Positions 7,789-46,700 are shown, counted from the first letter of the stretch. The stretch is 64,000 nucleotides of DNA from Dehalococcoidia bacterium (GCA_041481535.1 JBGPBZ010000001.1:1065-65064), one strand, 5' to 3'. Notes: generated from the letters alone by a model not told the origin. Numbers and translations are program-made.

Positions 7789-8682
7789 TCAGGCCGCGGA
7801 GGCCGCAGTCGCGGGCACGTGCGCTGGCGTCTCGCGGAGCAGGTCAGCGCGCGGTGTCGTCTCCGCCTCGCCGGCCGTCCCGGTGATCTCGCCGCGCTCC
7901 TCGCAGCGCTGGAAGGCCCGGACAACCTCCGGGTCGAACTGCGTCAGCGAGTTGCGGAGGATTTCCTTGATCGCCATCTCGTGCGGCATCTTCTTGCGGT
8001 GCGGCCGGTCGCTCGTCATCGCTGTGTAAGCGTCGACGACCGAGAAGATTCGCGCGCCCAGCGGGATTGCCTCGCCCTTGAGGCCGCGCGGGTAACCCTG
8101 GCCATCGAACCGCTCATGGTGCGAGCGGACGATGTCCCCGCAGTCACGCAGGTGACGGATGCTGTTCAAGAACTCGAAGCCGAATTCCGGGTGGCGCTTC
8201 ATCTGGGCCCACTCCTGCTCGGTCAGCGCGCCGGCCTTGGTGAGGATGCCCTGCGCGATCTCCACCTTGCCGCAGTCTGCGAGGAGGGCGGCCTTCTGTA
8301 GCAAGCACACATCGTCCTTGCGCATGCCCATCTCGGCGGCGAGGATGCCCGCCAGCTGCCGGACGCGCGCGATGTGATCGCCGCGCATGTCGTCGTCCAG
8401 CTCCAGCGCCGTCGTCAGAGAGCCGATCACGGCGTCGTACTTGTCGCGCGAGTTCTGAATGACCCGCTCGGCACTCTTGTTCGCGGTCTGCAGGCGCCGC
8501 AGCGCGATGTACAGGGCCGCCCACAGCCCGAGGGCCACGGCGACAACCGCTGCGGTCGCGCTGATAAGCAGCGTCACTGCTGCCAAAACGCCGCACACGG
8601 CGGCGACTCTCAGAACCAGCAGAACGGCCCCTACGTAGGGCCGCCTGCGCCCAGGCTTCTTGTTCTTAGACTTGGCTGTCAT
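7789..8682 (-). CDS. Membrane-anchored HD-GYP domain c-di-GMP phosphodiesterase
   Basis: The N-terminus has 2 TM helices. The HD-GYP signature reads HHERFDGQGYPRGL. GGGAGG lies 4 nt upstream of the ATG at 8682. Confidence 0.8.
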   Translation of the reverse strand: MTAKSKNKKPGRRRPYVGAVLLVLRVAAVCGVLAAVTLLISATAAVVAVALGLWAALYIALRRLQTANKSAERVIQNSRDKYDAVIGSLTTALELDDDMRGDHIARVRQLAGILAAEMGMRKDDVCLLQKAALLADCGKVEIAQGILTKAGALTEQEWAQMKRHPEFGFEFLNSIRHLRDCGDIVRSHHERFDGQGYPRGLKGEAIPLGARIFSVVDAYTAMTSDRPHRKKMPHEMAIKEILRNSLTQFDPEVVRAFQRCEERGEITGTAGEAETTPRADLLRETPAHVPATAASAA

Positions 8683-26353: not shown

Positions 26354-26452
26354 ATCGCCCGTCAATTAGGCTGACAGTTCCGCTATCAACTTTGCTGCGT
26401 GTAATCGTGGACATTTGTTCGGCGTCCTCGTACAATAACCGTGGATACGCGC

Positions 26453-27505
26453 ATGGCAAAGGACTATTACAGCACGCTCGGCGTCAAGAAGGGCGCCACC
26501 CCGAAGGAGATCAAGTCTGCCTTCCGGAAGCTGGCCCGCAAGCACCACCCGGACGTGAACCCGGGCGATAAGTCGGCGGAGGAGCGCTTCAAGGAGATCA
26601 ACGAGGCGCACGACGTCCTCTCCGACACCGACAAGCGAGCGAAGTACGACCGCTACGGCGAGAACTGGGAGCAGGCGGAGGCTTACGAGAAGGCGCGGGC
26701 GCAGTACGGCGCCGGCGGCCCCGGGGGTCACTCCGAGACGTTCACGTTCGACATCAACGATCTGCTCAGGCGCCAGGGCCAGGGTGGCGGGCGCACGCGG
26801 ACGGGCGGCGGCGGGTTCGACTTTAACGACGTGCTGGGCGGGATCTTCGGAGGCGGCGGTGGTGGCCGTCGTCAGGGGCCGATGCGCGGCCAGAACGTCG
26901 AGTACGAGACGGAGATCACGCTGGAAGAGGCGTACAACGGGACGACTCGCACGTTGCAGTTGCAGGGCGAGGAGCCCTGCCCGACCTGCGGAGGCGCCGG
27001 CCATATCGGCGATGCCGTTTGCCACACGTGCAGCGGCGTCGGCTCCGTGGCCCGCCCCAGGCGGATCGAGGTGAAGATACCGGCCGGCGCGCAGACGGGC
27101 ACTCGCGTGCGGATTGCGGGCGAGGGCAGCCCCGGCATGGGCGGCGGACCGCGCGGCGATCTTTATGTCGTGACGAACGTTCGGCCACACTCGAAGTTTG
27201 AGCGCAAGGGCGACGACTTGATCGAAGAGATCGCGGTGCCGGTGGAGGACGCGGTGCTCGGCGGCGAAGTCGAGGTGCCGACGATCGCGGGCAAGCGCGT
27301 GGCGATGAAGGTGCCGGCGATGACGCAGAGCGGGCGCCAGATCAAGCTGAAGGGCCTCGGGATGCCGAACCTGAACGGCCGCGACAAGGGCGACCTCGTT
27401 GCGCGCGTAAGGGTAGTGATCCCGGACGAGGTGTCGGAGGACGAGCGCGCGCTGTTCGAGGAGCTGCGGGAGATGCGGCGCAATGGGCATGAGGTGAAGT
27501 CATGA
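26453..27505 (+). CDS. dnaJ: Chaperone DnaJ (J domain, G-rich linker, reduced zinc finger, C-terminal domains)
   Basis: DYYSTLGV..KYHPD is the HPD J domain. Gly-rich region. Only two CxxCxGxG motifs are present (CPTCGGAG, CHTCSGVG). Confidence 0.85.
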   Translation: MAKDYYSTLGVKKGATPKEIKSAFRKLARKHHPDVNPGDKSAEERFKEINEAHDVLSDTDKRAKYDRYGENWEQAEAYEKARAQYGAGGPGGHSETFTFDINDLLRRQGQGGGRTRTGGGGFDFNDVLGGIFGGGGGGRRQGPMRGQNVEYETEITLEEAYNGTTRTLQLQGEEPCPTCGGAGHIGDAVCHTCSGVGSVARPRRIEVKIPAGAQTGTRVRIAGEGSPGMGGGPRGDLYVVTNVRPHSKFERKGDDLIEEIAVPVEDAVLGGEVEVPTIAGKRVAMKVPAMTQSGRQIKLKGLGMPNLNGRDKGDLVARVRVVIPDEVSEDERALFEELREMRRNGHEVKS

Positions 27506-28296
27506 AATACGACTACCTGACCAATGAGCTAACCGATTGGTACAAAATGGCACAAGAGCGCGACCGACTTGCCATCCAGCATTCCGAGTCGATCCTCGGG
27601 GCAGAAATGGCCGTGTTCGTTCAGGGGATGGGTCTCTCTCGGACGCTACTTGATTTCGTGTTGCATGGAGAAGGCCAAGTGCATGACGAAGCACTCAAGG
27701 CCAAGATGGGCGTCGCGGACAGAATGTTCCTACTGCTTTGGGCGTCTTGGCACGATACGTTGACGGGACGATACACCGCAGCCGCTGAGCATTGGCGCAG
27801 TTTACTTGAAGCGCCCAATTTCCTGCTCGCCTTTACCTGGGATCCATCATTAGCTGAGAGATGGATCAAAGGAGACGATGTCAAGTTCGAGAAGGTGCGG
27901 AAGGCAATTCGGAATGCGCTGAAGGACGAAGGCTCGAGCGACTTCGCCAGAGAATGGGACCAACGACACCTTCGAGACGACAGGGCTGTTCAAGCGTTTT
28001 CGCATACGAGCACAAAGGCCATCTACTCTATGCTCGCGACGGCGACAGACGAACGTGGGAATCTCGGGTATCAACTAAGGAGTGAACTCTCAGTTGATCG
28101 GACGAGAGAACTCTGCATCTTTCTAGCGAAGGATGCTTGGGAGCTAGCGCGCGCATGTGGGGCGGCCTTCTCAGACAACACCAAGGTAGCTGAACTCTGG
28201 GGAGGGCCCGGCAAGATATTGCTCGAAGAGAATATTGGAAGGCTCACGGACGCTCTATCGGAGTTGGAAGCGCCTAGTGCGGCGGTGAAGTCATGA
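27502..28296 (+). CDS. Hypothetical protein X1 (264 aa, all-alpha, low GC) inserted between dnaJ and hspR
   Basis: ATGA overlap with dnaJ at its start and with hspR at its stop. GC is about 52%, against about 67% for the flanks. No recognisable domain. Confidence 0.55.
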   Translation: MKYDYLTNELTDWYKMAQERDRLAIQHSESILGAEMAVFVQGMGLSRTLLDFVLHGEGQVHDEALKAKMGVADRMFLLLWASWHDTLTGRYTAAAEHWRSLLEAPNFLLAFTWDPSLAERWIKGDDVKFEKVRKAIRNALKDEGSSDFAREWDQRHLRDDRAVQAFSHTSTKAIYSMLATATDERGNLGYQLRSELSVDRTRELCIFLAKDAWELARACGAAFSDNTKVAELWGGPGKILLEENIGRLTDALSELEAPSAAVKS

Positions 28297-28646
28297 ACGA
28301 AAGACAAACGTACGACGAAGAAGTGCCGTGTTTCGTGATCAGCGTGGCGGCGCGGATGGTGGGGATGCACGCGCAGAGCCTGCGCAACTACGAGCGGATG
28401 GGGCTGATCCAGCCCGGGCGCTCGCAGGGGCGGGTGAGGCTGTACTCGCAGGCCGATATCGAGCGTCTACGGAACATCCAGCGCATGGTTCAGGACCTGG
28501 GTGTGAACCTTGCCGGGGTGGAAGTGATCATGAACATGCGCGAAAGCATGCGGCGAATGGAGCACGAGATGGACCGCCTGCGCGAGAAGCTGCAGGAGTA
28601 TCGGAACAGGACGCTGCCGGCGGTGAAGGGGCGGGCGACGGGATGA
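28293..28646 (+). CDS. hspR: MerR-family heat-shock repressor HspR
   Basis: N-terminal MerR HTH (CFVISVAARMVGMHAQSLRNYERMGL) followed by a coiled-coil. This is the typical position after dnaJ. Confidence 0.75.
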   Translation: MNERQTYDEEVPCFVISVAARMVGMHAQSLRNYERMGLIQPGRSQGRVRLYSQADIERLRNIQRMVQDLGVNLAGVEVIMNMRESMRRMEHEMDRLREKLQEYRNRTLPAVKGRATG

Positions 28647-29443
28647 AGAAGAACCCAGGACGTGAGATAACCAAGCGGATCGACGAACTAATCGGTCGGA
28701 TGAAGAGGTTCAACGTTTACGGGTCGCACCTTGCCTACTCGGATGCGGACGTCGAGATACTAAAGAACGACATTCGCGAATTCGCTCGAACGCTTCCAGA
28801 ATCGGAGACTGGCAAGATTCTCGAGATTCTGAGATACACCCACCTTCGGGGATCTCTCGCTCGAAGCTCTGACCACTTTTGGACTGACTACGGTCATTCT
28901 CTGACAACCCAATTCGAGCTCATCAAACATCGCATCGCAAGAGGCCAAGTGGCTCTTGAGGAGCCGAACCTCGACATCCTGATCGACCCCAAGACACCAC
29001 ACTCGGCGTATGTGGCGCTACGTCAAATAATCGAGACGGTTCAGAGCGACATCATGATGGTTGATGCCTGGATGGATCGGATTTTGTTCGACCTCCTAAC
29101 TAACCTAAAGAGTCCCTCACAGGTTCGATTTCTGACCCGGGCAGACTTCTTGCCGGGAGACTTCGCGATTGAAGCTAAGAAGTTTGGACAACAATACAAC
29201 CACAAAGTGGAAGTTCGCATTCACCCAGACGTGCATGATCGATACCTGCTCGTCGATGGGGCTGCGTTTGCGACCGGGGCATCATTCAAAGACTTCGGAC
29301 GAAAGATGTCATACGTCATGAAGGTTAAGGACATGGCCGCACCGACAATTTCCATGCTGGAGAAGAGATGGCAAGAGGCCTCACCCTCTAAGCGAGCCGC
29401 GCCGAATGCCGAACAGGCTAAGCAGAAAGTAGAACGGAAATGA
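28643..29443 (+). CDS. Hypothetical protein X2 with a C-terminal PLD-like (HKD-like) domain carrying H-D-R in place of H-x-K
   Basis: [21 protein letters not shown] aligns with the Nuc-type VHAKFMVIDDEWALIGSANF. GC is about 50%. There are 4-bp overlaps with hspR and clpB. Confidence 0.5.
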
Positions 29444-31917
29444 TGAGACAGGATAGGTTTACAGAGGGCGCGCAGGAAGTGCTGGCGGCGAGCCAGGAGC
29501 TCGTGCGCAAGGAACGCCACTCGCAGTGGGACGTGGAGCACGTGTTGCTGGCGCTGCTGCAGTACGACAAGGGCATCACGCCGGAGATCTTCGCCAAGCT
29601 GGGCGTCGATACGGAACGGCTGCGCGCGGCGGTGCGAGAGGCGCTCGACAGGTCGGGGAAGCTGCAGTACGAGGTGGTGCAGATTTTCACGACGCCGCGC
29701 ATTGTGAAGATGCTGGAAGCGGCGAACGCGGAGGCGGAGCGCCTGAAGGACGAGTACGTCGGCGTGGAGCACATGCTGGTCGCGATCACAGATGAGCGCG
29801 ACGGCGAGTCGGCGCGGATTCTGCGCGACTTCGGCATCGACAAAGAGAAGGTGTACCGCGCGCTGCAAGAGGTGCGCGGCGGCGCCAAGCTCGACAGCCC
29901 GACGGCGGAGTCGAAGTACAAGGCGCTCGACAAGTTCTCGATCGACCTGACGGAGGCGGCGCGGCAGGGCAAGCTCGACCCGGTGATTGGCCGCGACGAC
30001 GAGATCCGGCGCGTGATGCAGATCCTGAACCGGCGCACGAAGAACAACCCGGTGATCATCGGCGAAGCCGGCGTCGGCAAGACGGCGATCGCGGAAGGCC
30101 TGGCGCAGAAGATCGTGGCCGGAGACGTGCCGGAGAACCTGAAATCGAAGCGCGTGCTCGCGCTCGACATGGGCGCGATGGTCGCAGGCTCGAAGTTCCG
30201 CGGCGAGTTCGAGGAGCGCCTGAAGGCCGTGATGGACGAGATCAAGCGGGCGCGCGGCGAGATGATCATCTTCATCGACGAGATCCACCAGGTGATGGGC
30301 GCGGGCAGCGCTGAGGGATCGATCGACGCGTCGACGATGATGAAGCCGGCGCTGGCCCGCGGCGAGCTGCAGTGCATCGGCGCGACGACGCTGGACGAAT
30401 ACCGCAAATACATCGAAAGGGACGCCGCGCTCGAGCGGCGGTTCGCACCGGTGTACGTGGACGAGCCTTCGGAGGAAGAGGCGATCGCGATCCTGAAGGG
30501 GCTACGCCCGCGCTACGAGGCGCACCACAAGGTGAAGATCACCGACGAGGCGATCGAGGCGGCAGTGCAGCTTTCGTCGCGCTACCTGACCGAGCGCTAC
30601 CTGCCGGACAAGGCGATCGACCTGATCGACGAGGCCAGCTCCAAGCACGTGATCGACGCGCAGAGCATGCCTGCGAACGTCCGCGAGCTGCAGAAGCGGG
30701 TCGAGGAGCTGGAACGCGAGCAAGAGGCGGCGGCCGGGCGCGAAGACTGGGAGCAGTCGGCGAGCATCAAGCAATCGCTCGAAGGCGCGCGCTCGGAATT
30801 CGAGTCGGCGCGTGATGGGTGGCTAGCTGAGACGGGGCACGACGACATGACGGTGGACGAGCACGACATCGCGGAGCTGGTACACAAGATCACGGGCATC
30901 CCGGTGAGCCGGATGCTGGAAGGCGAGCCGGAGAAGCTGCTGCAGATGGAGGAGCGACTGCACGACCGCGTGATCGGGCAAGACCGGGCGATCGAGGCGG
31001 TGTCGGACGCGATTCGTCGCGCGCGGGCCGGACTGAAAGACCCGAACAGGCCGATCGGATCGTTCATCTTCCTCGGGCAGACGGGCGTCGGGAAGACCGA
31101 GCTGGCGAAGGCGCTGGCCGAGTTCATGTTCGACGACGAGGAAGCTATGATCCGTCTAGACATGAGCGAGTACCAGGAACGGCACACGGTGTCGCGGATG
31201 ATCGGCTCGCCACCCGGCTACGTCGGCTACGACGAAGGCGGCCAGCTGACCGAAGCGGTGCGCAGGCGGCCGTACCGGGTGATCCTGCTCGACGAGATCG
31301 AGAAGGCGAACCCGGAGGTGTTCAACGTCCTGTTGCAGATGCTCGACGACGGGCGCCTTACAGACGGGCACGGGCGCACGGTGGACTTCCGCAACACGGT
31401 TGTGATCATGACCTCGAACCTGGGGACGGAGGCGTTCCACAAGCCGCAACTCGGGTTCGGGCTGCCGACGAGCAAGCCGTCCGAGACGGAGCGCGACAAG
31501 CAGAAGGCCGAGATCGAGAAGGCGCTCCGCCAGACGTTCCGGCCGGAGTTGCTGAACCGCATCGACGACATCATCATCTTCGACCCGCTGACTGAGGACG
31601 ACCTGAAGCGCATCGTGGAGTTGCTGCTGAACGACGTGGCGGAACGCCTCGGCGACAAGCACGTCGAGTTGCAGCTGACCGACGCGGCGAAGGCGGCGCT
31701 GGTGCGCGAGGGCTACGACCCGGTGTACGGCGCGCGCCCGTTGCGCCGCGTGATCGAGCGCCGCATCGCGAACCCGCTTTCGAAGCGGATCCTCTCGGGC
31801 GAGTTCGCAGACGGCGACTCCGTGGAAGTGACGTACGCGGACGGAGAGTACGCGTTCGCGAAGAAGACGGCCGCCACGAACGGACGCAAGAAGGAGCGGG
31901 TGACGGTCGAGGCGTAA
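29440..31917 (+). CDS. clpB: Clp/Hsp100 ATPase, ClpB-like with an unusually short middle domain (825 aa)
   Basis: Two Clp_N repeats and two AAA+ modules (GEAGVGKTA and GQTGVGKTE). About 90 aa separate NBD1 from GIPVSRM, compared with about 150 aa in E. coli ClpB. Confidence 0.8.
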
Positions 31918-31966: not shown

Positions 31967-32413
31967 CTAATCCTGTGTTAGTAGCAGATGAATCAGCGGA
32001 CGCTCTGACAATGGTTTGCCTCCGGGGAGCAATAGCACCAATTGATTGAGCTGTTCCTCTGGTGCGTTGCCTATTACGTCCAAGGCTATGGATCTTGCTG
32101 ATAGCCAAAGCGCAATCTTGTCGACGTTCTTCTCGTGGCCAGCCGCGATGCTGACTGTAAATTCGTAGAGTTCTTCGTCGTACGCGCACAACACTTGGCT
32201 GTTGGTCAGCAAGAAGACTATCGCTGCCGCCAGTCCCATTCGCTTGTTCCCATCCATGAACGGGTGATCGAGGATGATCGAACGCATGAGAACCGCGGCC
32301 TTGGCAAAGTCGCCGACATAGGCCTCCTCGCCAAATGCTGATTGTCGGGGGAGAGCGAGGACACCTTCGAGGACATCGCGACCGCGTTCGCCAAGCAACG
32401 ACAGGACGGGCAT
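31967..32413 (-). CDS. doc: Fic/Doc family toxin (death-on-curing)
   Basis: HPFMDGNKRMG is the Doc/Fic motif. GC is about 50%. Confidence 0.75.
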   Translation of the reverse strand: MPVLSLLGERGRDVLEGVLALPRQSAFGEEAYVGDFAKAAVLMRSIILDHPFMDGNKRMGLAAAIVFLLTNSQVLCAYDEELYEFTVSIAAGHEKNVDKIALWLSARSIALDVIGNAPEEQLNQLVLLLPGGKPLSERPLIHLLLTQD

Positions 32414-32499: not shown

Positions 32500-32646
32500 C
32501 TAGTCCTTCTGGAGGCGCTCAAAGACTTTCTTGTGCGCCCGAGCAATCGCCTTCGAGGCGCCGCGAACAGTAGTAACTTCCCGGATCTTTTCCTGAGATA
32601 GCCGGTTCTTGGGTGCTTGCTTACGCGTCGATTTACTCGTGACCAT
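32500..32646 (-). CDS. Putative antitoxin (48 aa, basic; Phd/RHH-like) upstream of doc
   Basis: ATG at 32646. The product is MVTSKSTRKQAPKNRLSQEKIREVTTVRGASKAIARAHKKVFERLQKD. It sits 86 bp upstream of doc. Confidence 0.4.
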   Translation of the reverse strand: MVTSKSTRKQAPKNRLSQEKIREVTTVRGASKAIARAHKKVFERLQKD

Positions 32647-32667
32647 ATCTGTCAAATATTACCACGC

Positions 32668-39605: not shown

Positions 39606-40319
39606 TCAGACGATGGCAGCAGCAAGATCGCCGGCCGCGGCGATCGGCGGCTCCGGGAAGTCGGGCGTGAGGTCGAGCTGGTAGCCGAGGAGAATCTCCT
39701 TGACGGGCGAGAAGGAGCGGCGGTGGAGGTCGCACGGGCCGAGGTCTTTGATGGCGCGGACGTGCTCCGACATGTAGTAGCCCTTGTTGTGGAGGAATCC
39801 GTAGCCGGGGAAGTTGCAGTCGTGCGTGTCCATGAGCCTGTCACGCGCGACCTTGGCGATGATCAAGGCAACCACGATAGAGAAAAAGATGCCATCACCG
39901 CCGATGATGTTGGTCTGCGAAAGGTTGCAGGCGCGCAACGGGAATGCGTCCGTCAGGAGATGCTGGGGCCGCACCGGCAGGTCCCCGAGCGCGGCCAGCC
40001 AGGCCTGGCGCGAGGCCTCCGCGATCCCGATGCGATCGATCGTCTCGACCGAGACAAACGCCACGCTTGCGGCGACAGCGCGCTCCCAGATCAGCGGCGC
40101 GAGCTCTTCGCGGGCTTCGGGCGAGAGCTTCTTGCTGTCGTTGAGGTGGCGGATGAACTTGTACCGTCCGGCGGCCCGCGCGCCCATCGGAAGAATTACC
40201 GCGCCCGCAGCGACCGGCCCGGCGAGCGGCCCTCGCCCAACCTCGTCCACTCCGGCGATGAGGTGCCTGCCCTCGCCCCAGACGGTGCGTTCGAATCGGA
40301 ACGAGGGGCGCTTCGGCAT
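39606..40319 (-). CDS. rnhB: Ribonuclease HII
   Basis: GVDEVGRGPLAGPV is the catalytic DE motif region. The protein is 237 aa. Confidence 0.85.
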   Translation of the reverse strand: MPKRPSFRFERTVWGEGRHLIAGVDEVGRGPLAGPVAAGAVILPMGARAAGRYKFIRHLNDSKKLSPEAREELAPLIWERAVAASVAFVSVETIDRIGIAEASRQAWLAALGDLPVRPQHLLTDAFPLRACNLSQTNIIGGDGIFFSIVVALIIAKVARDRLMDTHDCNFPGYGFLHNKGYYMSEHVRAIKDLGPCDLHRRSFSPVKEILLGYQLDLTPDFPEPPIAAAGDLAAAIV

Positions 40320-40448
40320 CCTGGCTCGATGCTAGCGCCGCGGCGAGAAGCGAGTCAACGAAACGAGCAGGCTTGTTAACAATATGCTACCGCTAAGAAT
40401 CAATCATCAGCCGGACAAACGTGACAACTGCTTGATTGTTTGAGCGAT

Positions 40449-40494
40449 TGCTGATTGACTGTTTGCTGATTGACTGTTTGCTTTTGATACGGGA
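40449..40494. repeat. Tandem direct repeats (CTGATTGACTGTTTG x2 plus a partial copy) in the rnhB/tautomerase divergent promoter region
   Basis: Reads gattgCTGATTGACTGTTTGCTGATTGACTGTTTGCttttga, immediately upstream of the GGGAGG RBS of the tautomerase gene. Confidence 0.6.
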
Positions 40495-40501
40495 GGACAG
40501 G

Positions 40502-40687
40502 ATGCCAATCGTGCACATAGAGATGTTCAGCGGCCGCACAGACGCGCAGAAGAGCGAGCTGGCCCGCGTAATCACGGACGCCCTCGTCAATATCGCTCAC
40601 ACAACCCCCGACGCAACCATCGTTATCTTCCAAGATATCGACAAGGAGAACTGGGCCCAGGAGGGCAAGCTATTAAGCGAAGACTAG
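40502..40687 (+). CDS. 4-oxalocrotonate tautomerase family protein
   Basis: MPIVHIEMF gives a catalytic Pro1 after Met removal. GGGAGG lies 5 nt upstream of the ATG. The protein is 61 aa. Confidence 0.7.
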   Translation: MPIVHIEMFSGRTDAQKSELARVITDALVNIAHTTPDATIVIFQDIDKENWAQEGKLLSED

Positions 40688-40864
40688 CCGCCAGGAGCGC
40701 ATAATCGCGAATTGTAACGCCGATCATGGCTTTATCTGTAACCGATGCCAAGCGCGATTCGTCACATCTTTCAGAGACCGAGCCAGACAGGGCTCCGTGC
40801 TATACTCGAAATGAAGTATCGATAGATGTAAGTCTATCCAGGGTAGATACGTAGAAAGAGTCGT

Positions 40865-42832
40865 ATGAACGGTCGTTGGTTACGCAATAGCTTCATTTAC
40901 TTGCTCATATTGGTGGCGATCGTCGCCATCATCTTCACTGTCTTCTACGGCGGTAACTCCGGCGCGCAAAAAGAGACCGTCGGTGACTTTGTGGCGCACG
41001 TGCAGGCTGGCGAGATCAAGAAGATAGACGTCTCCGGCAGCAAGCTCACCTATACGCTCAACGGCGACGAGAACGAGTCCTACACGCAGATGGAAGAGGG
41101 CGACACCGTCAACAGTCTGCTCTCCCAGGCCAACCCCGCGATTCGGCTCGGCGACGACAAGTACCCCGAAGTAAACATCAAGGGGACTAGCGGCTGGAAG
41201 ACAGCGCTCAGTATTCTTCTACAGTTCATTCCGATCATCATCATCGTCGGTATCTTGTTCTTCTTCCTGCGCCAGGCACAGGGGTCGAATAACCAGGCGC
41301 TCAACTTCGGTAAGAGCCGCGCCCGCATGTTCAGCGGCACGAGGCCCAGCGTCACGTTCTTAGACGTGGCCGGAGTGGAGGAGGCAAGGGACGAGCTGAA
41401 AGAGGTCGTCGAGTTCCTCAAGTACCCGGAGAAGTTCGCCGCCCTCGGCGCACGCATTCCGAAGGGCGTGCTGCTCATCGGACCGCCAGGCACGGGCAAG
41501 ACGCTGCTGGCCAAGGCCGTCGCCGGCGAGGCTGGCGTGCCGTTCTTCTCGATCTCAGGCTCGGAGTTCGTCGAGATGTTCGTCGGTGTCGGCGCGTCTC
41601 GTGTGCGCGATCTGTTCGATCAGGCCAAGCGCAACTCCCCGTGCATCGTCTTCGTGGACGAGATCGACGCCGTCGGCCGCCACCGTGGCGCAGGCCTGGG
41701 CGGCAGCCACGACGAGCGCGAGCAAACTCTGAACCAGATCCTCGTCGAGATGGACGGGTTCGACACGAACACCAACGTAATCGTCATCGCGGCCACGAAC
41801 CGGCCGGACATTCTCGACCCGGCACTGCTTCGCCCGGGCCGCTTCGACCGGCAGGTCGTCCTCGACCAGCCGGACATCAAGGGCCGCAAGGCGATCCTCG
41901 AAGTGCACGCGAAGGGAAAGCCACTGGACCCGGTTGTGAACCTGGAGACGGTGGCAAAACAGACGCCTGGCTTCTCCGGCGCTGACCTCGCGAACCTCGT
42001 AAACGAGGCCGCGATCCTGGCCGCGCGCCGGGGCAAGAAGAAGATCACGATGCCAGAGCTCGACGAAGCGGTCGACCGCGTAATCGCGGGGCCGGAGCGC
42101 CGCAGCCGCGTAATCAGCAAGAAAGAACGCGAAATTATCGCTTACCACGAGGCCGGCCACGCGCTGGTCGGCTACATGCTCCCGAACGCAGACCCACCGT
42201 ACAAGATCAGCATCGTCGCGCGCGGAATGGCGGGCGGCTTCACCCGCTTCCTGCCGGAAGAGGACCGCCACCTTCACTCCCGCAGCGAGTTGCTGGACCG
42301 ACTCGCGGCGTTCCTCGGCGGCCTCGTCGCGGAGGAGCTGGTCTTCGGCGAAGCGACTACTGGGCCTTCGGACGACATCGGACGAGCGACGTCTATCGCG
42401 CGCCAGATGGTGACGCAGTGGGGCATGAGCGAGCGTCTCGGGCCCCGGACGTTCGGGCGCAAGGAAGAGTTGGTGTTCCTGGGTCGCGAGATCTCGGAGT
42501 CACGCAACTACTCGGACAAGGTGGCGGAAGAGATTGACGAAGAGGTCCGGCAGATCATCGAGCACGCGTACCAGACGGCGAAGCGCCTTCTGACGGAGCA
42601 CCGCACGAAACTTGACGCTCTCGTCACGGCGGTGATGGAACAAGAGACGATTGAGGGCGAAGCGCTACAGCAGCTGCTGTCCGGCACCGGTGCGCCCGGC
42701 CAGACGATGCCGGAAGGCGAGACGCCGCAGACGGAAGAGCGCAGCCCGGAGCCGCAGAAGCCGAACGTGGCACCGCCGAAGCCGGGCCTGGCCTGGGACA
42801 CGCCGTCGGTCGTCGATCCGCCTGTGGACTAG
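40865..42832 (+). CDS. ftsH: ATP-dependent zinc metalloprotease FtsH
   Basis: Two TM helices, the AAA module GPPGTGKT, the SRH region, and the HEAGHA zinc site. There is a Pro-rich C-terminal tail. Confidence 0.9.
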
Positions 42833-45097: not shown

Positions 45098-45185
45098 GCC
45101 GCGACCAGTTAAAGTTTCCTAACCTATAGATATTTGCGTTGTCAAGACGTTGACGTCTGCGTTCGCGCATTAGAAAATACGCGTC

Positions 45186-45932: not shown

Positions 45933-46700
45933 CTAAAGCCGGACGGGGATGCTATGCGAGGCCAGGTACTCCTTAACCTCACGGATACGGAACGTGCCGA
46001 AGTGGAAGATGCTGGCGGCGAGCACGGCGTCGGCCTTGCCTTCGACTATCGCCTCCAGCAGGTGCTCGAGCTTGCCGGCGCCACCCGAGGCGATCACGGG
46101 CACACGCACGGACTCCGAGATGGCGCGCGTGAGGCCGATATCGTAGCCGTTCTGCGTGCCGTCTGCGTCCATGCCGGTGACGAGCAGCTCGCCCGCGCCC
46201 AGCTCGACGCAGCGCTGCGCCCACTCGACGACGTCGAGCTCGACGGGGGTGCCGCCGCCGGAGCCGCCATAGGTGTGCACCTGCCAGCGGCCCTGCCCGA
46301 TGCGCTTGGCGTCGATGGCGACGACGATGCACTGCGAGCCGAACTTGTGCGCCGCTTCTTCGATGAAATGCGGGTTCTCGACGCCGGCGGTATTGATCGA
46401 GACCTTGTCTGCGCCGGACTCCAGCATCGCGCGGACGTCTTCGAGCGTGCGGATGCCGCCGCCGACGGTGAACGGGATGAACACCTGGTCGGCAACGTGG
46501 CGCACCATCTGCACGGCGGTGTCGCGCCGGTCCGGCGATGCCTTTATGTCGAGGAAGACGAGCTCGTCCGCACCCTCTTCGTAGTAGACCTTGGCGAGCT
46601 CGACGGGATCGCCCGCGTCGCGCAGGTCTACGAAGCGAATGCCCTTGACGACGCGCCCGTCCGCGACGTCGAAACAGGGGATGATGCGCTTGGTGAGCAT
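45933..46700 (-). CDS. hisF: Imidazole glycerol phosphate synthase, cyclase subunit
   Basis: [16 protein letters not shown] is typical of HisF. ATG at 46700. Confidence 0.9.

Follow-up and report, generated by a model that had tools for sequence, protein, structure and literature searches.

Two accessory genes flank hspR in a heat-shock operon of an uncultured Dehalococcoidia bacterium

The heat-shock operon at positions 26453-31917 of a 64-kb stretch of DNA from an uncultured Chloroflexota, class Dehalococcoidia (metagenome source; the whole stretch is called the window below), carries two genes, X1 (27502-28296) and X2 (28643-29443), one on either side of the repressor gene hspR. The reading that we favour, and hold by a modest measure to be the probable one, is that X1 and X2 are unrelated accessory genes, acquired independently, which occupy two recurrent slots of an HspR-controlled operon, namely the dnaJ-hspR boundary and the hspR-clp boundary. 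The first-pass annotation of this DNA had described them as a foreign two-gene module. Their foreign, accessory character stands, as the GC content at third codon positions (GC3) is about 0.60 in both, compared with 0.85-0.91 for their neighbours, and both are absent from the closest genome found. The module does not stand: homologues of X1 occupy the same slot of at least nine other operons without X2, and homologues of the X2 domain occur elsewhere without X1. A defence or conflict role appears to be the best-supported function for both genes, through homology for X2 and through context for X1.

Recurrent insertion slots around hspR

All five genes of the operon (dnaJ, X1, hspR, X2 and an Hsp100 gene) lie in the same orientation on the plus strand. 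The ATGA overlap reported earlier for X1 and X2 is present at all four junctions, with the ATG at 27502, 28293, 28643 and 29440 and the TGA one base later in each case. Overall GC content and GC3 are 0.545 and 0.604 for X1 and 0.517 and 0.603 for X2, compared with 0.677 and 0.886 for dnaJ, 0.630 and 0.847 for hspR and 0.657 and 0.910 for clp; when the 64 kb is scored in 400-nt windows, few segments fall below 0.57 GC, and those of X1 and X2 are among them. The range of 50-52% GC first given for both genes is correct for X2 and slightly low for X1. A metagenome source and an abrupt change of GC at gene borders would also be expected of an assembly or binning artefact, that is, of a chimeric contig. 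This explanation can hardly be credited, as the ATGA junctions are exact and in frame and the same slots are used on many independent contigs, and it was rejected because the X1-hspR-X2 segment is identical in two contigs that were built separately, one from the Joint Genome Institute (JGI) and one from Logan.

The operon was compared with 80 loci of related Dehalococcoidia and Chloroflexota species representatives. In 76 of the 80, hspR is directly upstream of clp, with dnaJ upstream wherever the contig extends. The double interruption of the dnaJ-hspR-clpB order proposed at first is in agreement with this, except for the label clpB, as the Hsp100 gene is of the ClpC type (below). Conservation of X1 and X2 as core genes of the operon with normal GC is not seen: none of the 80 loci carries a homologue of either. 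The closest genome found, L003 (ClpB 90%, DnaJ 84% and HspR 86% identical), lacks both, and its dnaJ and hspR overlap directly through ATGA. Between the window and L003 hspR is 84% identical in nucleotides and 86% in amino acids, and we take it to be the native gene.

Extra same-strand genes, 0.35-2.7 kb in extent, are found at the hspR-clp boundary in 15 of the 76 loci, and extra genes are found at the dnaJ-hspR boundary in 3. Both boundaries of hspR are recurrent insertion slots. Their cargo includes an HtrA-type protease, S-adenosylmethionine (SAM) methyltransferases, a YtfJ-like protein, a methyltransferase/VTT/hydrolase-like module, a PIN toxin preceded by a partner gene, a family whose N-terminus forms a transmembrane helix, a weakly DUF5677-like protein and several low-GC unknowns.

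The junctions themselves suggest how such cargo could enter. The 64 kb contains just two copies of the 14-mer GGTGAAGTCATGAA, both on the plus strand: one at 27493-27506, where it spans a Shine-Dalgarno-like GGTGA together with the stop codon of dnaJ and the start codon of X1, and one at 28284-28297, where it spans the X1 stop and the hspR start. X1 thus appears bracketed by a duplicate of the ancestral junction (Shine-Dalgarno, stop and start). Repeats also flank the X1-like genes of L083 (20 nt, 90%) and L092 (13 nt, 92%), the repeat sequence differing from locus to locus, and L104 keeps a relic of the dnaJ 3' end before its X1-like gene although htrA now lies upstream. Between the cargo genes of the hspR-clp slot, the 5' end of clp recurs as a pseudo-copy in L083 (2706-2760, 36/41), L005 (7792-7833, 36/42) and L018 (7324-7377, 50/54), and the 3' end of hspR does so in L017 (6609-6648, 39/40); these pseudo-copies match the true ends at 86-97%. 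The duplicated junction sequence measures 14-55 nt in several insertions. We infer that the repeats and pseudo-copies were left by recombination that used the conserved flanks as anchors, by which the junction was duplicated or a piece of the donor operon imported; cargo would move between operons by the same route. Recombination anchored in this way would explain why the inserted genes have canonical spacing from the start, which new operon pairs show less often (Price et al. 2006, PMC1480536).

The arrangement resembles two known phenomena: hotspots for accessory or defence genes, and the insertion of ORFans into operons. As in hotspots between core genes, the same boundaries carry different cargo in each genome. 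As in the ORFan insertions described by Price, Arkin and Alm (2006, PMC1480536), foreign genes without promoters sit in a native operon and use the native promoter. Unlike those cases, the slots flank a repressor in a stress operon, the spacing is the canonical ATGA though the genes look recent, and several insertions carry duplicated junction sequence, which suggests a way for coupling to be kept.

The X1 family and its contexts

X1 (plus strand, 264 aa, GC3 0.60) belongs to an undescribed all-alpha family. A word-indexed search with X1 returned X1 itself alone, and an exhaustive HMMER search yielded a family of 70 clusters of 250-285 aa. Residues W83, R90, R99, E103 and H168 are invariant in an alignment of 29 closer members (alignment A1), and R99 and H168 alone persist across the most distant ones. 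An alignment-based AlphaFold2 (AF2) model is all-alpha with one small hairpin, and its confidence is high (predicted local distance difference test, pLDDT, 93.9; predicted template-modelling score, pTM, 0.89). A Foldseek search of this model against PDB and BFVD gave nothing significant, only generic helical matches with template-modelling (TM) scores below 0.3. No family in Pfam, NCBIfam, PADLOC or PHROG matched X1, and the family pattern was not found in IMG/VR. The first-pass statement that no equivalent had been described therefore holds for X1 as an undescribed family; X1 is not an orphan, and the X2 domain is covered by the PADLOC PDC-S05 models.

Two named families come near X1. The best PDB profile match is a retron HEPN chain (E 0.11); X1 as a HEPN protein (Rx4-6H motif, four-helix bundle) was rejected, as the motif His is not conserved and the assignment lacks structural support. 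Pfam DUF5677 is the closest named family, through two weak links that both pass by one protein. The X1 profile aligns with a 219-aa protein in the hspR-clp slot of L017 (L017:7324-7983; hhalign probability 83%, E 8.5e-6), and this protein, which keeps R99 and H168, has a weak DUF5677 match (E 0.0073). None of the 29 family members scanned matches DUF5677 at E up to 1. We know of no function for DUF5677. The family is reported to be enriched beside defence-linked serine recombinases (PMC12632615).

Ten distinct X1 homologues, that of the window included, lie immediately upstream of hspR (window, L083, L084/94, L085, L086, L087, L089/90, L091, L092/93 and L104/105). They make up ten of 14 contexts; the other homologues, in L088, L102/103, L106 and L107/108 (three on short contigs), have no heat-shock neighbours. 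In L104 it is htrA, not dnaJ, that lies upstream of the X1-like gene. X2 was never seen in the second slot of the X1 loci whose contig reaches that far: it is unoccupied in L089 and L091, while the protein found there is an unrelated one of 249 aa in L083 and a transmembrane one of 198 aa in L104.

These contexts bear directly on whether X1 and X2 form one two-gene system straddling hspR, be it for defence, for abortive infection or as a set of co-chaperone partners. The two genes share a low GC3 (0.60) and their orientation, they are coupled in one transcription unit, and both slots are also filled in L083 and L104. X1 homologues nevertheless stand without X2 in all 13 other contexts, L085, L089, L091 and L092 among them, and the filled second slots hold unrelated proteins; X1 is absent from the seven contexts of X2-domain homologues, and the gene between the two is the native hspR. 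Kinship of the two proteins was itself rejected, as they share no similarity. A single system is thus very improbable.

The main rival for X1 takes it for a lineage-specific heat-shock accessory, a modulator of HspR or DnaJ as CbpM is of CbpA, inherited vertically and lost in genomes such as L003, with X2 alone being foreign. It is unlikely in our estimate. The ten homologues upstream of hspR overlap it stop-to-start or nearly so, even where htrA lies upstream (L104), and X1 identity roughly tracks that of the flanks in some pairs (L083 and L085: DnaJ 90%, HspR 93%, X1 60%). The 14-nt repeats, moreover, would permit precise loss of X1, leaving the ATGA junction of L003. Against vertical descent stands the composition, as GC3 of the X1-like gene is markedly below that of its neighbours in every locus examined (nine loci), and in the operons the values of 0.60-0.70 compared with 0.83-0.95 for the flanks would be hard to sustain over a long time. 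X1 is also absent from all 80 of the nearest species representatives, and the phylogenies disagree. The sister-sample locus L104 is 89% identical to the window in ClpB and 87% in HspR, and its X1 is only 28% identical and its hspR-clp cargo different; the more distant L091 (DnaJ 81%, HspR 84%) has an X1 that is 43% identical. The X1 family evolves much faster than the flanks, and its divergence is not fully congruent with host relatedness.

The members that lie apart from hspR also argue against a role confined to heat shock. In L102 (4991-7326) an X1-family gene and a 115-aa open reading frame (ORF) lie between a tyrosine integrase gene and a 165-nt copy (84%) of the integrase 3' end, which indicates a cassette-like insertion or the remnants of tandem elements. 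On longer contigs we examined three other distant relatives, with E of about 1e-4 to 1e-5. That of L110 lies in an island with HTH/M78, EVE, IS66, integrase and CBASS genes, and that of L111 adjoins AbiTii and a phage portal gene. The third, L109 7001-7786, has eno on one side and an HGD-D family gene on the other, with an ATGA overlap; its GC3 is 0.41 compared with about 0.7 for the flanks. A second ORF of very low GC (0.38) is found two genes downstream of it (L109 8853-9437). The distant relatives in defence, prophage and mobile-element neighbourhoods lend the plausible idea of stress-triggered defence some support by context.

The PLD/Nuc-like domain of X2

X2 (plus strand, 266 aa, GC3 0.60) has a helical N-terminal region (about residues 1-105) and a C-terminal domain (about 108-247) that resembles phospholipase D (PLD) and Nuc. 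A word search of 5.8 billion proteins with X2 returned X2 itself alone, even at E up to 10. No family in Pfam, NCBIfam or PHROG matched, apart from a weak hit to VPA1262_N_dom (0.0022), and a Pfam PLDc match was absent. Residues 111-240 do match the PADLOC PDC-S05 models PDLC04869 (5.7e-19) and PDLC04879 (7.1e-17), the alignment being limited to 130 C-terminal residues on the side of X2 and to the last third of the models. Residues 1-105 match no Virulence_RhuM, ORF6N or other domain and are unique to X2, whose homologues carry RhuM or ORF6N.

Homologues of the domain were found by tblastn against plasmids and phages. It forms the C-terminus of Bacteroides 'RhuM family' proteins, one of them beside an AAA ATPase and a retron-type HNH; it is likewise C-terminal in a Treponema ORF6N protein whose gene sits within a type I restriction-modification (R-M) operon with Fic, in an Azotobacter protein that has AIPR and hsdR as neighbours, and in proteins of haloarchaeal plasmids and viruses. 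Across eight sequences from bacteria, archaea and a virus (alignment A3), D141, T165, H198, D199, R200, D205, G212, S214 and G219 are invariant.

Several of these residues form an HKD-like motif (29234-29299, plus strand), H198-D199-R200-x4-D205-x6-G212-x-S214...G219. Compared with the PLD pattern HxK(x)4D(x)6G(S/T)xN, the His, Asp, Gly and Ser are spaced as in PLD, Arg replaces Lys, and no Asn follows. The resemblance was first noticed in a 19-residue peptide (residues 197-215), with the same Arg for Lys, and profile tests lend it some support. The Arg is a trait of the whole family and not a sign of decay. In a search of PDB with the X2-family profile the best match is Nuc of Salmonella plasmid pKM101 (1byr; E 0.043); it spans essentially the whole Nuc domain (chain residues 15-150 of 155), places HDR on HDK and keeps the spacing to the Asp and to the Gly-Ser. 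Direct alignment of the X2 family with Nuc by hhalign gives E 2.6e-4 and a probability of 42%. The Treponema homologue matches PLDc_2 (E 0.0032, under the gathering score) and PADLOC DpdK (0.013). Unlike Nuc, all members of the X2 family have Arg for the motif Lys and the Ser-x-Asn part reads G-x-S-x-K-D, and the scores are marginal. A single HKD motif per chain, as in Nuc, implies a homodimeric active site. By this likeness X2 may be a homodimeric phosphodiesterase or nuclease effector.

The named relatives of X2 are the PDC-S05 RhuM/ORF6N proteins (PDLC04869 and PDLC04879), with which it shares the C-terminal domain and all its invariant residues. These proteins open with a RhuM/ORF6N (KilA-N-like) domain, whereas X2 has its unique helical stretch of about 105 aa; and their genes lie in type I R-M operons or defence islands, whereas X2 lies in a heat-shock operon, between hspR and clpC, where the only conflict-type gene nearby is the downstream Fic/Doc gene. 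RhuM-like proteins have been proposed as toxins of a multi-level R-M-linked defence (Anantharaman et al. 2013, PMC3710099). A PDC-S05 representative, described only by its Virulence_RhuM domain, cut the plating of T7 and T5 about 1000-fold (bioRxiv 10.1101/2024.09.26.614923).

Operon control, core genes and the possible role of the inserts

A sigma-70-like promoter, TGGACA-17-TACAAT (26408-26436, plus strand), precedes dnaJ and agrees with the consensus at 10 of 12 positions. No other promoter-like site was found on the plus strand between 26200 and 32700, and terminator-like sites in the same interval did not exceed chance expectation. Next to the promoter lies an inverted repeat, CTGACA-GTTCCGC-TATCAA (26371-26389, plus strand; 7-nt spacer), that resembles HAIR, the HspR-associated inverted repeat, and is a candidate HspR operator. 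In an alignment of seven dnaJ upstream regions the relatives have the consensus TTGATA-N7-TATCAA just upstream of the -35 box. At up to two mismatches this variant has two matches in the 64 kb (0.26 expected). The canonical HAIR operator, CTTGAGT-N7-ACTCAAG, has no match near dnaJ at up to three mismatches. The only other weak matches in the window, at 45127-45145 (variant repeat, two mismatches) and 46404-46424 (canonical HAIR, three mismatches), are at chance level. Because there is one promoter-like site with a conserved inverted repeat beside it, co-transcription of the five genes and control by HspR, as first proposed, are plausible.

The setting recalls the HspR/HAIR regulon of Actinobacteria (dnaK-grpE-dnaJ-hspR; clpB): here too an HspR equivalog accompanies dnaJ and an Hsp100 gene, and an inverted repeat of 6+7+6 lies upstream of the promoter. 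Unlike that regulon, the half-sites are TTGATA/TATCAA and not CTTGAGT/ACTCAAG, dnaK-grpE is missing here, and the Hsp100 is of the ClpC type. The HspR of the window (28293-28646, plus strand; 117 aa) is a MerR-type heat-shock repressor that exceeds the cut-off of the NCBIfam HspR equivalog NF047375 (120 bits compared with 105). DnaJ (26453-27505, plus strand; 350 aa) has a J domain (Pfam DnaJ 2.9e-27) and DnaJ_C (9.8e-49), with a partial zinc-finger region. Its DnaJ_CXXCXGXG match is under the cut-off (E 8.3e-4; 20 bits compared with 32.7) and two CxxC pairs only are present, so it may be a J protein of the reduced-zinc-finger or CbpA-like kind, with the CbpM-related HspR as its partner.

The Hsp100 unfoldase (29440-31917, plus strand; 825 aa), first labelled clpB, is better described as ClpC-type. 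Its score against the ClpB model TIGR03346 (1124.5) is under the cut-off of 1232.1, with the match split into two stretches. The best solved match is Bacillus subtilis ClpC, in one continuous stretch; matches to ClpB break at the middle domain, which is short, and the protein has an LGF loop (PQLGFGLP). A second Hsp100 paralogue, about 50% identical, lies near the operon in some relatives (L053 3764-6172 and L071 14546-16987), and in L004 (1780-5375) the locus search gave a match span of 3.6 kb for the 2.5-kb Hsp100 gene.

In the window this gene has neither a Shine-Dalgarno sequence nor an intergenic region of its own. The clp gene of L003 has a 114-bp leader with AGGAAGGA upstream. As this leader is gone from the window, translation of clp should depend on coupling to X2. 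The L003 spacer between hspR and clp also contains two GC-rich hairpins, GGGGCGAGTTGCGCTCGCCC and GGGCGAGTGCCACTCGCCCC (7897-8000), possibly a repetitive extragenic palindromic (REP)-like element or a scar.

Other features of the window lie outside the operon. Downstream and convergent with clp is a Fic/Doc-type gene of low GC (31967-32413, minus strand; 0.53-0.57) with an HPFMDGNKR motif (Pfam Fic 6.6e-11); it matches the Fic part of the PADLOC PDC-S23 and PDC-S05 models. A 51-aa ORF upstream of it (32500-32655, minus strand) could encode an antitoxin, and L003 has a split, degraded Fic/Doc remnant at the equivalent place. The GC minimum of the window (0.534) falls at 40301-41300; a small tautomerase-like ORF (40436-40687) lies there, along with intergenic DNA and the 5' portion of an FtsH gene.

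Dependence of clpC on X2 also bears on whether the inserts do anything for the host. X1 and X2 could be neutral or selfish hitch-hikers in a tolerant and well-expressed operon, after the manner of ORFan insertion in E. coli operons. Insertion of ORFans into native operons is known, the newcomer using the native promoter (Price et al. 2006, PMC1480536), the slot cargo is heterogeneous, and X2 is unique to the window organism. Such idleness is hard to reconcile with the invariant residues of X1 across 29 diverged sequences and its high-confidence fold, or with an X2 that keeps all the invariants of its domain family. Both frames are intact and the coupling is exact, and with clpC translation now dependent on X2 a useless insert would bear a cost. 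We regard hitch-hiking as decidedly unlikely.

In the mechanism that we propose for independently acquired accessory genes, all five genes would be transcribed from the promoter at 26408-26436, with HspR acting at the adjacent inverted repeat, and would be translated by termination-reinitiation. With transcription under HspR, X1 and X2 would appear only once proteotoxic stress, perhaps including phage infection, de-represses the heat-shock regulon. X1 would be a conflict-type protein, serving defence or counter-defence, with R99 and H168 at its functional site.

Several points weigh against this account. Because the cargo at the two boundaries is mixed (HtrA, methyltransferases, YtfJ and VTT as well as PIN toxins), the slots are accessory-gene slots and not specifically defence sites. 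The place of X1 beside hspR in most contexts fits a heat-shock-related role as well. Its link to DUF5677 or HEPN is weak, and the single DUF5677 protein that was assayed elsewhere did not figure in the active set. The PLD link of X2 consists of weak-to-moderate profile scores, and its single-sequence AF2 model has a pLDDT of 41. X2 is without the RhuM/ORF6N N-terminal domain, and the PDC-S05 protein that was tested may lack the PLD-like domain. Finally, short junction repeats could partly reflect a common need for Shine-Dalgarno and ATGA. Against such an origin, the spacer bases are identical too, the repeats match within a locus while differing from one locus to another, and the window's two remaining ATGA junctions lack the 14-mer; these points favour duplication and do not prove it.

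A bolder form of this account, which we put forward as speculation and consider quite unlikely, has the HspR operon of this Dehalococcoidia clade as an integron-like platform that captures promoterless cargo at the stop/start junctions beside its repressor. Duplication of the junction would regenerate coupling, cargo would be swapped between lineages, de-repression by phage-induced proteotoxic stress would act as an infection alarm, and conflict proteins would gain a new fold family in X1. The alarm is suggested because the cargo includes effectors of nuclease or toxin type (X2, PIN and the X1/DUF5677-like proteins).

What sets the present case apart from the known kinds is the combination of insertion slots that flank a stress repressor and show duplicated junctions with an undescribed protein family whose fold is predicted confidently. 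If the account is right, the operon of a stress repressor is a reusable site for the landing and expression of horizontally acquired genes. Duplicated junctions would then be the sequence signature of entry into an operon without broken coupling, a mechanism left open by Price et al. (2006). Defence effectors would be made inducible simply, by borrowing the heat-shock regulon as a sensor. Two tractable proteins would follow: an H-D-R PLD-like domain present in bacteria, archaea and viruses, and an all-alpha family without a solved or viral structural relative. Should the defence reading be wrong, the locus still shows cleanly how accessory genes come and go within a core operon, here in an uncultured lineage.

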